Shown: positions 26,419-63,858 of the stretch, in pieces | Layout of the letters: each line of letters opens with the position of its first letter | How positions within the stretch are numbered: position 1 is the first letter of the stretch | From: Balanoglossus misakiensis | Lineage: Eukaryota; Animalia; Hemichordata | Direction: 5' to 3' | DNA: 64,000 nt | Assembly: GCA_040954595.2 (NCBI GenBank) | Contig: CM082578.2 | Location: 9,905,519-9,969,518, forward strand | Notes under the pieces: generated by a model | Database searches by the model: none | Seen by the model: the letters and a program-made list of their open reading frames with translations, nothing else | Told to the model about the DNA's origin: nothing | Program-made: the position numbers and the translations under genes

Positions 26419-29400
26419 CTAAAGTTGGTAGTTTCTGGTGGCGTCTTTCAGTTGCTGATAAACTGGTTGATAGTTTCTCTGCATCCACTGAATGTTGAGT
26501 TTGACCTTGTCGACTGCAGCCTGGTAACTGCTGGTGGTAAAGCCCGGCATATCCTGGTACTTGTTGCCAAATGCTTGAAGCTGGAAATAGTAAAACGCGG
26601 GAAAAATCAGTGAAATTTGTAATTTATTTATGTAGGCGATAAATTACCGATTCCATGAACATCTACCCATACAGTGTAAACACATCTAAGTTCAGACTAA
26701 TAGCATGTTTAATCGTTCAAGAGGATAACTTCAAAATGTATGTAACATCTACACGTGGAATGAAGCGAAGTTTACATGTACCTTGAGCAGGTCCAGTTCA
26801 GTGTTCATATAATCAGCAAACTGCCACACGATGCTAAAAGCACCATTGCCATGACTACAAAACAGAATGATATTAACAGTTTTGTTAATTTTTTAAGAAC
26901 AAATCAGTTGTTAGGATAACAGGTTGTACAGAAGGATTTACAATACAAATTATTCAAGTGGCAACTTTTGAAGCAAACTTACGCCTCCTTCAGGGCATCC
27001 CAGTTATTTATTGCAAAGTCCCATGCAAAGGAGAAACCGGAGTTTTGAAGAACACTTCCAATGACGCTGTCCGCTTCGTTCTTGGACAGGGCATATTCCA
27101 TATACCTACGGAAAAATACATGGCACCCTATTAATCTACTTTTGGAAAAAAAATCGACACACAACAGGACTAAACCACTACACGTAAATGATGGTAATCG
27201 TAATGACTCGCTTTGATGATATCGATGATACATTGATGAAGTGACCTGGTTTACCCACCGAAATAGACTGACTATATTGTGTTCCTTTCAACATAAAATT
27301 TGTTTAAGAATGTAGCTTGTGGGCCACTTTTCTCATATGGGCATTATCGAGTGAGTGTAAACTACAATTATATAGAAAGTACCTCTCCAGAATCCATTGC
27401 TCTTTGCTACATGCAAGCGCTGACCGCATCCGGGTTCTTTCATCTGCGGGTATTCGGTCATTGTCATAGAGACTCCAAGCTTCCTCCCATAGATTTTCAC
27501 TGCCATATTTCACAGCTGTACAATACACGGTGTCCTTGACATTTGAATGAATAGACCTGTTGGGTTAGATAAAAAAATAATAGATGTTTTCAAGATAAAT
27601 GCGAAGAAATGATATGTCTTCTTTTATGGATGGTCCAATCATTTCCCTAGAAACTAAAACGAGTAGGCAGTTCCTCGCAAAGACAAAACCTTGTCACCGT
27701 ACAGAACAGCATGGCCAATGAATTTGCTTTTGTATGTATGAAGCAAGTGAATTAACCCAAGGAGCGGTTAATGGTATACATGTACACAAAGTTGGAATAA
27801 CTGAACACTAGGGGACTGTGCGTGTAGACCCGCTTGGAAACCGGCAAGGTCAAATACAGGTTACCAATGAGAGATTTTTGCAAATTCACTTACTCCGTGT
27901 CGTTGATATTGGCAAGCCATTGGCTAAACTGCACCTTTGCCATATCTGTGCAATGTCCGTGACCATAGTAACACGCTGTTTTGATTGCGTCTATCTGTTT
28001 GTAACTGCAGGAGAGAATGGTTATAAGTGAACATCCACATGGTACATAAACATTGGGTCGCAATAAATTATAATGTATTAGAAGGTACAAATTCACAGTT
28101 CATCACGACTGATCAACACACCAGGTAGAACCATCGGCTCTCCAAAATACGTCTGACACATGCACACACACAAAGCACAGCTAAACTACATTGATTACCA
28201 AATTCACATGTAACAACAATGGGGTGATCACAGCCGCTACTCAAATTGGCTTCGAGGAACCCAAACATATTCGCGGACTTTCTGCTTCTTCAAGAATTCT
28301 CTGAGAAGGCAGAATGTACAGAGATGACTTACTATTGGAGATGAAGGTCGTGACTGAAGTCCCATTCAAGTTCCCAGTAGCTGTTGTTTATGAGGTATCG
28401 CATGTGTCTCTGCAAGTAAGGACAGACATGGCAACTTGTTATTGGTATAGCATCATTCTGGCACGAGAGATTCTTTATAGTTTTCAATAAATTCCAGAAA
28501 CCGATTGATTCGCGCACTTAGTCGGAGTGTTAAACTAAACAATTACCTCCAAGTAACCAAATGCTGCAGTTCTCTTCACCATATCTCTGGTGTATCCGTG
28601 TCTTAAGATTGCCGTGTACCAGGGTAGGGTTTCCGTCTCTTTTGACAAATACTCCAACAACTTGATGGAGTAGACTTGGTCCATTTGGTGGGCGTTTGCA
28701 ATGGAGAATGCTTCTTCCAACAGCTGTGACCTTGTCCGGACAGGGATGGCCTGAAAAATGTCAAGATCCCTTAGTGAATAACATCATATTTGCGAAGGTC
28801 AAGATGTTTTGAGAAACACGCACCATGCACATACATCATACACAGGGGATTGTCTCCAACTTACACTATGATCCCCATCTTTCAGGAATGTTGCCAACTT
28901 ATCCCAGTTTTCGTTGTCGTATAGGACACGGTAATAGCCTCTGTGGTCGACATTTACCAAGTACCAATCATCACTTGAAGAAGATGTCAGTGTGAAATTA
29001 GCTGAAACAAGGAATAAATACGGTAGATAACAAGAACTTTACATAAATCGGCATAGAATCATCATCCGATAGGCTTGGAAGGCTAAACTTCTGGTCATAT
29101 GCCTCATGTGGACGTTCGACAATCATGAATCAAGTACTTTCCTTTTGTCCTTTGCAGAAATTCCAATTTATTAAATGTAATGGTCCCTGACAAGTATATG
29201 AAAAACGCCCGGCAGTAACATACCTGGTCCCATGTTCATCCATGTTTCATGTGGACTATCAAATCCCATTTCTCCTTGATCAGTGTAGGTTAAATGGACA
29301 TACCACTTATATCTGTAGGAAATAATAATAAATTAAAGGATAAATTCAATTGCAGAGTTCCCATAATGAAACATCTGAAAACATACGGGTTCGTCTTTCC

Positions 29401-62400: not shown

Positions 62401-63858
62401 TGCATGACTCACAGTTCCACTACATACCCATGCACTTACTCTACTTTTCATTTTGAAAATGCAATGTTCGCATGGTCGAGATGGACTTTTTCTACTCACT
62501 ATGCTAAGTGTTCGCCGTGGTTGAAGCTCCAGTATTTATTCCAGTAGTTGTTGTTGACCAGAGTTCGCATTAGACTCTGTAAATGGAAATGATTGAATAA
62601 ACGTTAAAGCACATGCTGTCTTTCATCATAATTACCCCAGTAACTTCTGACTATAACACAAGACCAATTCTTAGTTTCCTTATAAACTGAAGTAATTATC
62701 TACAAACACAATGCGACAGCAAATTCTAGGAATAGGAGTTCAATGTAGCACGTATCCACTCACCTCTAAGTAACCGTATGCTGCAGTTCTCTTCAGCATG
62801 TCTCTTGTGTAGCCATGTCTGAGTATTGCGGCGTACCAGGGTATGTATTCCGTCTCCTTTGACAAGTACTCTAACAATTTGATGGAGTAGACCTGGTCCA
62901 TTTGGTGGGCATGCGCAATTGAAAAGGATTCTTCTATCAGCTGCGCCCTTGTCCTCACTGGAATGGTCTGAAGTGGAAGATATGACATTGATGGAATAAT
63001 CCCTGTTCAAAATTCCATTAGATATGCGTGAAGGATGGCAACCCAAGGATTTGCTTGTTGGGAGGTAGAAGGCGCGGTGTGAAATGTACAATTGGACTGT
63101 GGCGGAGATTATAATTTACCAGCCAATGAACTTACTGTGTGATCCTCTGATTTGAGGAACGTTGCAAGCTTGTCCCAGTTGTCGTTCTCGTATTTGACGC
63201 GATACAGCCCGTTGTGATCGATGTTTACCAAGTACCAGTCGTCGCCAGAGAATGATGTTGAAAGATTGAAATCAGCTGTGAACAACAATAATACAATACG
63301 CTCGGTTTACAGTAGGTGTGAAAATGATTTAGACTTCACTGGCACTCTGCTTTCAGCTATAAGCATAATATCTGTTGACTTGTGATATTCAAATTTGTGT
63401 ATTGGCAAGTTCTGAATAGTAGTATAATTGTGTGTCTAGACCAATTTACATCGCTGGACTCGAGGGTGACTGTATTTCCTACCTGGGCCCATATCCATCC
63501 ATTTCTCGTGCGGGTTACTGAATTCCATTTCACTCTGGTCTGTGAAGGTCAGTGGAACGTGCCACTTGTATCTAAAAATAATGGAATTTGGAAAATGAAT
63601 AGGGTAGCTATAATTTCATCGACAATGACCAGGATTTGTATTAGAAGAAGTATTATACGTTATAAAATAACAAACTTCCCATTACCCCATATCATAATAC
63701 TTGTCATTTGGCTCTTCGTTGGGATCCATGATGAATCGCTTCTGCTCCGCGTGTACTGCACTGCCCTCTCGTGTCAGGGTTATTATTGGATAACCCATCT
63801 GCAGCGTCCACGTATCCATCACCATGCCAACGTCCGTGTCTTTGAACCCTACATCAGC
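26419..63858 (-). CDS. Giant concatemeric M1 aminopeptidase (aminopeptidase N-like) gene: at least 7 tandem full-enzyme modules in one ORF; 5' end lies outside the window
   Basis: A roughly 16-exon unit repeats every 5.2-7.0 kb. Six junction exons each read without a stop from one module's C-terminal helix ([13 protein letters not shown]...VYQQL) into the next module's N-terminus ([11 protein letters not shown]). The only stop seen at a module end is TAG at 26421-26419. Confidence 0.9.
32415..37695 (-). CDS. M1 module F (complete; divergent active-site region)
   Basis: [76 protein letters not shown]. Confidence 0.9.
37696..42906 (-). CDS. M1 module E (complete; very close paralog of D, including introns)
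   Basis: Same motifs as module D; intron sequences are alignable by eye. Confidence 0.9.
42907..48120 (-). CDS. M1 module D (complete)
   Basis: [73 protein letters not shown]. Confidence 0.9.
46167..46222. repeat. (GACA/GGCA)n microsatellite
   Basis: Read directly from the sequence; present in a module D intron and absent from the paralogous E intron. Confidence 0.85.
48121..55099 (-). CDS. M1 module C (complete; close paralog of B)
   Basis: Same motifs as module B ([28 protein letters not shown]). One intron is expanded by an insertion of about 1 kb. Confidence 0.9.
51007..51149. mobile_element. Foldback/MITE-like long hairpin 1
   Basis: Arms AGCAATAAAACACCCCCAGCCATGGTATACCA and TGGTATACCATGGCTGGGGGTGTTTTATTGCT are perfect reverse complements. 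Pairing continues inward (GATTTTGACCAGTTCA / TGAACTGGTCAAAATC). Confidence 0.8.
51152..51303. mobile_element. Foldback/MITE-like long hairpin 2
   Basis: AACACATGT..GGGCAATATCATGATCTTTGGCCTGC..TGGTGATCTCTGACCATAATATTGAT-C-ATCAATATTATGGTCAGAGATCACCA..GCAGGCCAAAGATCATGATATTGCCC..ACATGTGTT. Confidence 0.8.
55100..61023 (-). CDS. M1 module B (complete)
   Basis: [73 protein letters not shown]. Confidence 0.9.
61024..63858 (-). CDS. M1 module A (partial: end of catalytic domain, domain III and ERAP1_C-type domain IV)
   Basis: [72 protein letters not shown], and [10 protein letters not shown]...QWMDRNY. Confidence 0.9.

Follow-up and report, generated by a model that had tools for sequence, protein, structure and literature searches.

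A 64,000-nucleotide stretch of the genome of the acorn worm Balanoglossus misakiensis (contig CM082578.2, positions 9,905,519 to 9,969,518; hereafter the window) carries on its minus strand a single, real gene with an intact spliced frame, in which modules of the M1 aminopeptidase family stand head to tail. We interpret it, with a probability of roughly 70%, as one intact gene for at least seven linked modules of the aminopeptidase N (APN) type, encoding an ectoenzyme that is likely held by a type II membrane anchor and would trim food peptides at the gut brush border. To our knowledge, characterised M1 aminopeptidases have been treated as having one catalytic unit per chain. The window departs from this pattern of one catalytic ectodomain per chain seen in APN-like ectoenzymes, with six units and half of another in one frame.

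An intact frame encodes six complete aminopeptidase modules and half of a seventh

We built the gene model by hand, clustering the open stretches of the minus strand into 16 recurring classes, setting their edges by splice sites and then assembling them. This poly-aminopeptidase gene occupies 26419..63858 of the window, its 5′ end lying beyond 64000. Read from 63858 to 26419, it comprises 106 exons with 17,511 nt of coding sequence for 5,836 amino acids (aa; computed mass of the in-window chain ~680 kDa) and a single stop codon, at 26421-26419. AG acceptors are present at all 106 exons, and the 105 introns (89-1,138 nt, median 166) have 104 GT donors and one GC. Every module is built from 16 exons with intron phases identical among modules. 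No frameshift or internal stop was found across the 106 exons, in keeping with an initial annotation of this DNA that had placed the only stop codon in the last module. From the sequence, we infer a single full-length mRNA for the whole chain.

That annotation had counted at least seven complete enzymes of about 890 aa each, with more than 5,500 aa inside the window. The total stands, whereas the count and the unit length need revision: the window holds six complete M1/APN modules (B to G), the internal ones about 900 aa long, and the C-terminal half of a seventh (A), which is cut by the window edge. Module A (61063..63858) contributes its domain III and IV exons, about 437 aa over these coordinates and 450 aa by the count of the whole model, its catalytic exons lying beyond 64000. 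The complete modules, like A on the minus strand, fall into two active-site subtypes. YF precedes GAMEN in modules B (55139..61023, 901 aa; GAMEN at 59460, HELAH at 59352) and C (48157..55099, 900 aa; 53695 and 53587), and AS takes this place in D (42943..48120, 899 aa; 46898 and 46790), E (37732..42906, 899 aa; 41686 and 41578), F (32451..37695, 897 aa; 36435 and 36327) and G (26419..32414, complete and terminal, 890 aa; 31221 and 31113).

The sole GC-AG intron of the gene is in module G, with its donor at 29588-29587; all six other modules have GT at the corresponding donor. Module G closes with the terminal coding exon (26419..26580, minus strand; 53 aa and TAG), which is homologous to the 5′ part of the junction exons described below, and it ends without a hydrophobic tail. 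A candidate polyadenylation signal, ATTAAA, follows the stop by about 45 nt. Three junction exons carry AATAAA at their 3′ ends, but there the hexamer encodes EIK, and it was rejected as a signal.

All six complete modules contain the HEXXH-X18-E zinc-binding motif (that of module A falls outside the window) and GAMEN, the GXMEN exopeptidase motif. All six also have a tyrosine that aligns, by way of an alignment between a module from the acorn worm Ptychodera flava and human APN, with the tyrosine of ISYSKG in domain II of the human enzyme, which we take to be the transition-state (catalytic) tyrosine. Pfam scans, run on eight single exons of the window rather than on the spliced protein, matched Peptidase_M1_N, Peptidase_M1 or ERAP1_C on seven, with one ERAP1_C just below the curated cut-off. 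By every sequence feature tested the modules are members of the M1/APN family, and they are predicted to remove N-terminal residues in a zinc-dependent manner. Kyte-Doolittle profiles of the spliced in-window chain revealed no internal membrane anchor or signal peptide: the peak for any 19-mer is 1.73, and the 19-mers above 1.5 sit in a domain I strand. The plus strand and the rest of the window beyond the array yielded no M1-like pieces.

Junction exons are under purifying selection on both sides of the linker

Successive modules are joined by six minus-strand exons, A/B (60605..61203, 599 nt), B/C (54681..55279, 599 nt), C/D (47702..48297, 596 nt), D/E (42488..43083, 596 nt), E/F (37286..37872, 587 nt) and F/G (31999..32591, 593 nt), whose coordinates had been given exactly by the initial annotation. 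Each is bounded by an AG acceptor and a GT donor and has no stops in frame 0, with 7-14 stops in each of the other frames. As had been described (a linker of about 15 aa and some 140 aa of the next enzyme), the product of each consists of the final helices of one module, an acidic, Pro-rich linker of 14-15 aa and ~140 aa of Peptidase_M1_N, the start of domain I; Pfam supports Peptidase_M1_N on three of the six. At none of the six junctions did we find a stop, a linker methionine, a signal peptide or anchor, or intergenic DNA, which bears out the earlier statement that the modules are joined without such interruptions.

The junction exons are under purifying selection and both of their halves are translated, since the ratio of nonsynonymous to synonymous differences (pN/pS) among the six is 0.19 in the helices and 0.31 in the domain I part (0.56 in the linker; uncorrected counts, 15 pairs). 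Of 16-codon stretches in the intron DNA of this gene, 38% are open by chance, and the corresponding value for six stretches, ~0.003, is indicative only, the modules being related. In the window, 33-34 aa separate the last helix from the next module, and 26-40 aa do so in the other clean fusions described below, versus 71-170 aa in five of six merged-neighbour controls checked; in the sixth, no such gap was found.

The same in-frame junction occurs in two other acorn worms

The D/E junction exon matches predicted proteins of P. flava (P0001; 72% identity, 98% covered) and Glandiceps talaboti (P0002; 60% identity, 100% covered) in a search with four matches, and both proteins read through the junction in frame. 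Together with P. flava P0005 (4,326 aa, five modules) and the partial G. talaboti P0006 (2,376 aa), these predictions contain nine window-like in-frame junctions. The architecture is thus found in relatives, where the initial annotation had proposed to look for it, and the full model and the shared junctions uphold its claim of one gene rather than merged neighbours.

Like the window array, the P. flava and G. talaboti arrays have the same junction and linker, with 62-78% identity per module, and all fall into one clade (support 1.0); YF-GAMEN and AS/GS-GAMEN subtypes are present in all three species. Unlike it, they are represented by automatic, split and unnamed annotations, and their module order is shuffled. 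P0005 carries five Pfam M1_N/M1/ERAP1_C sets, so that the repeated domain sets anticipated for the window were seen in full in this orthologue and not in the spliced window chain, where the matches are to single exons. A hydrophobic helix near residue 39 of P0005 corresponds to a type II membrane anchor, and the stalk that precedes its module 1 resembles the internal linkers. P0005 ends at module residue 639 and P0001 picks up at 676; because these ends are complementary, the two are probably parts of one split P. flava gene of about six modules. The C-terminal end of P0001 resembles the last exon of the window (bootstrap 93 for that region).

Regional trees conflict on which modules pair, which is consistent with modules having been shuffled by gene conversion or unequal crossing-over. 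At the end of domain IV, module A shares 66-67% identity with the inner P. flava modules and 54% with the first, and because it is closer to the inner ones, at least one further module probably lies upstream of the window.

When P0001 is compared with solved M1 structures, APN scores highest (610 bits), followed by APA (470), ERAP1 (454), IRAP (428) and PSA (398); by sequence, the closest solved relative of an acorn-worm module is human APN (E 5.5e-182). An AlphaFold model of P0001 (predicted local distance difference test, pLDDT, 70; predicted template-modelling score, pTM, 0.58) places the linker, residues 184-200 at pLDDT <50, between a long helix and a beta-sandwich, after which a normal module follows. 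The top matches of a fold search with this model are mammalian APN, at 33-35% identity.

Duplications within the array

Modules D and E are the youngest duplicates, with ~90% DNA identity over 5.2 kb and 94-98% identity in 14 of the 16 exon classes. B and C are 93-96% identical in their catalytic exons and 41-67% in their introns, and the introns of pairs other than D and E are called unalignable. The boundary of the D/E duplication lies inside the junction exon (window 47296-48297 and 42082-43083): between junctions C/D and D/E, the 3′ halves and the next intron are ~95% identical, whereas the 5′ halves differ.

Multi-module M1 proteins are widespread in invertebrate predictions

The initial annotation implied that such a protein is unique, and our searches of public proteins contradict this: M1 proteins of two to five modules are common in invertebrate predictions, and one oyster prediction spans seven. 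These searches spanned 348-2,000, 1,900-5,000 and 2,379-7,571 aa, and public proteins above 7,571 aa would be missed. The long matches listed number 137 (120 of 172 M1 proteins of 1,900-5,000 aa, and 17 from the longer search), of which 135 have at least two zinc motifs (two in 25, three in 90, four in 14 and five in 6). Defining clean fusions by a period of 840-930 aa and no internal hydrophobic helix, we obtained 91 of them, 22 flagged merges that do contain such a helix and mostly have a longer period, and 24 irregular proteins.

The host lineages are molluscs, a brachiopod, an annelid, starfish, insects, chelicerates, bdelloid rotifers and a chytrid, and examples include predictions from Lingula (3,732 aa), Saccostrea (3,695 aa) and Nasonia (2,692 aa). 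A 6,179-aa prediction from the pearl oyster Pinctada imbricata (P0125) has seven module spans behind an N-terminal hydrophobic helix, with five intact zinc motifs; its inner modules are near-identical, and two are damaged in the prediction. Among the matches listed, the window chain has the most intact active sites per frame, six versus at most five elsewhere. Eight unnamed proteins of two or three modules occupy 75-97% of short contigs and have no introns, as transcripts would. The chytrid protein (P0117, Lobulomyces angularis, 3,270 aa) has about four M1 module spans, and the multi-module design may extend beyond animals.

In a FastTree phylogeny of 91 modules from 31 chosen proteins, the acorn-worm clade is separate from the mollusc-brachiopod-annelid, starfish, insect, rotifer, chelicerate and chytrid arrays. 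Because arrays group by lineage, the tree suggests repeated origins, although support at its deep nodes is weak and an older array under concerted evolution could yield the same clustering. Real genes kept for a long time should have modules that pair with those at the same position in other species, and this is the pattern in bees and wasps, in rotifers and in starfish.

Full-text literature searches of partial coverage found no published account of M1 aminopeptidases with several modules, although a database such as MEROPS may contain entries for them, and this widespread design seems not to have been named. In one study (PMC12753784, Table 1, S4-S6), a honey-bee aminopeptidase of 2,685 aa, XP_016768511.2, is listed with 45 unique peptides from adult and larval midgut brush-border vesicles and with a predicted signal peptide and glycosylphosphatidylinositol (GPI) site. 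Judged by the size given there, it would be a three-module protein, and its layout matches that of the three-module hymenopteran proteins found here; the passages on it are silent about its architecture. We put forward tentatively, at slightly less than even odds, the wider proposal that poly-aminopeptidases form an unrecognised giant brush-border class with at least six independent origins by fusion of tandem APN genes. The acorn-worm chain would be the extreme case among its intact members, with at least eight active sites, two specificity types and more than 800 kDa on one anchor.

A proposed membrane-anchored enzyme with many active sites

The P. flava orthologue suggests that the chain would begin upstream of the window with a short tail in the cytoplasm and a single transmembrane helix, and that one or more additional modules probably lie there too. 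Each module is predicted to fold as a normal four-domain APN, and the predicted flexibility of the linkers would permit the opening and closing of APN. Like beads on a string, the modules would act as independent zinc exopeptidases, trimming food peptides from their N termini at the brush border of the gut. The advantage would lie in many active sites per membrane anchor and in two kinds of substrate pocket within one chain. A digestive, brush-border role is plausible because of APN biology and of the bee protein in midgut brush-border vesicles. The initial annotation's suggestion of a multi-active-site, possibly brush-border enzyme thus gains plausibility from the P. flava anchor and the bee protein, and for B. 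misakiensis itself it is drawn by analogy.

Because the P. flava stalk before module 1 is similar to the internal linkers, the junction exon likely arose by an in-frame fusion between the last exon of one APN copy and that part of the following copy's first coding exon which encodes the stalk. Such a fusion would have removed the stop, the promoter and the anchor, and unequal crossing-over would afterwards have multiplied and shuffled the unit.

Several points weigh against this interpretation. The chain of B. misakiensis is known here from genomic sequence alone, and with intron phases common to all modules, isoforms that skip modules would keep the frame. P. flava and G. talaboti are represented by predicted proteins, from loci that are both in pieces, and the whole acorn-worm chain is in no public record. 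The AlphaFold model is of a relative, P0001, and of moderate quality (11 sequences). Anchor and gut location are both borrowed from other species; the module number of XP_016768511.2 comes from its length, and its peptides do not prove one chain. In addition, a half-depth contig joint in one DNA run (X1) leads from 37874 to 43236 and skips 5,361 bp, about one module, with the intervening letters unknown. The joint could stem from a divergent allele placed at the wrong junction during mapping, or from a haplotype that is one module shorter.

Alternative explanations

The whole chain might be made as a polyprotein and then cut in its linkers, by a convertase or by gut proteases, to release single soluble aminopeptidases. 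Sucrase-isomaltase and pro-lactase undergo such proteolytic processing. The linkers here are predicted to be flexible and exposed, each of the six contains one arginine, and the anchor would stay with the first module only. We nevertheless think this unlikely: none of the six acidic, Pro-rich linkers has a dibasic or RXXR furin-type site, and the three-module-sized bee protein was recovered from membrane vesicles, though its uncut state is not thereby shown.

We regard as quite unlikely, too, that the array works as a set of cassettes, giving mostly shorter isoforms by whole-module skipping and few or no molecules with all of the at least seven units. The equal exon phases mean that a skip to the next exon class in a later module keeps the frame, and a P. 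flava record is labelled isoform X2 and belongs to a four-member cluster. Yet conservation and an open frame extend over both halves of every junction exon, and an mRNA with one such exon holds at least two modules. Moreover, the introns are short, whereas skipping a module would take a jump of 5-7 kb over 16 good exons.

It is very improbable that haplotypes or near-identical copies were joined in tandem during assembly, inflating the number of modules. The close similarity of D and E in most exon classes, the half-depth joint of about one module and the polymorphism of acorn worms (two DNA runs list 141 sites of difference within 20 kb) would be compatible with such an artefact. Against it, D and E differ by ~10% over 5.2 kb, the introns of other pairs are unalignable, at most 39% of the 31-mers in any kilobase recur within the array, and both runs cover 30 of 30 bins of 26001-46000, although they come from the same sample, perhaps the assembly source, and so are not independent. 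The array is also present in two other species, and the worst case costs one module. Lastly, separate tandem APN genes that merely look fused, as in the 22 of 137 listed long matches from public annotations that contain an internal hydrophobic helix, are hardly credible here, given six of six uninterrupted junctions and the same junction in two other species.

Neighbouring genes

Directly downstream of the aminopeptidase gene, and on the same strand, is a multi-exon SLC5/sodium:solute symporter gene (18966-22997, minus strand; Pfam SSF, E 1.7e-6 on one exon). A pair of C-type lectin paralogues (Pfam Lectin_C) is oriented in opposite directions, one at 6211-6690 (minus strand) and one at 16283-16858 (plus strand), with further exons near 5565-5801 and 17157-17285. 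Three tandem paralogues on the plus strand (1-390, 2158-4700 and 10501-11964) have an N-terminal hydrophobic helix and Cys-containing exons; none of the four pieces scanned has a Pfam match.

Significance and comparison with known systems

A conserved chain of at least seven intact units shows that the M1 fold tolerates covalent stringing and raises the question of what is gained by it, be it a higher density of active sites on each anchor, a broader specificity or a replacement for dimerisation. Invertebrates appear to have arrived at this design several times, and it goes under labels like 'putative aminopeptidase-2' or 'uncharacterized protein', which make it easy to mistake for an annotation error; the junction test tells genuine fusions apart from merged neighbouring genes. 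With its two active-site subtypes, the chain allows a direct test of division of labour among its modules.

Like the modules of the window, mammalian APN (ANPEP/CD13; MEROPS M1; PDB 4FYQ, 5LHD) has four domains, GAMEN, HEXXH-X18-E and the catalytic tyrosine, and its type II anchor is matched in the P. flava orthologue P0005. According to one source (PMC5385526), mammalian APN is a type II ectoenzyme whose ectodomain of ~930 aa consists of four domains, can open and close, and forms dimers through domain IV. The enzyme described there has one ectodomain per chain, whereas the acorn-worm chain has at least seven covalently joined units of two active-site subtypes.

The M1 arrays of other lineages resemble the acorn-worm array in their head-to-tail modules, a period of ~870-900 aa and short linkers, and differ from it in having mostly two to four units, with modules that cluster by lineage. 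Many of the insect forms have a signal-peptide-like start and a hydrophobic GPI-type tail instead of a type II anchor. ACE, carboxypeptidase D, sucrase-isomaltase, maltase-glucoamylase and lactase likewise carry homologous catalytic units, often of diverged specificity, on one membrane anchor, but they belong to other enzyme families and have two to four units, compared with at least seven in the acorn-worm chain.

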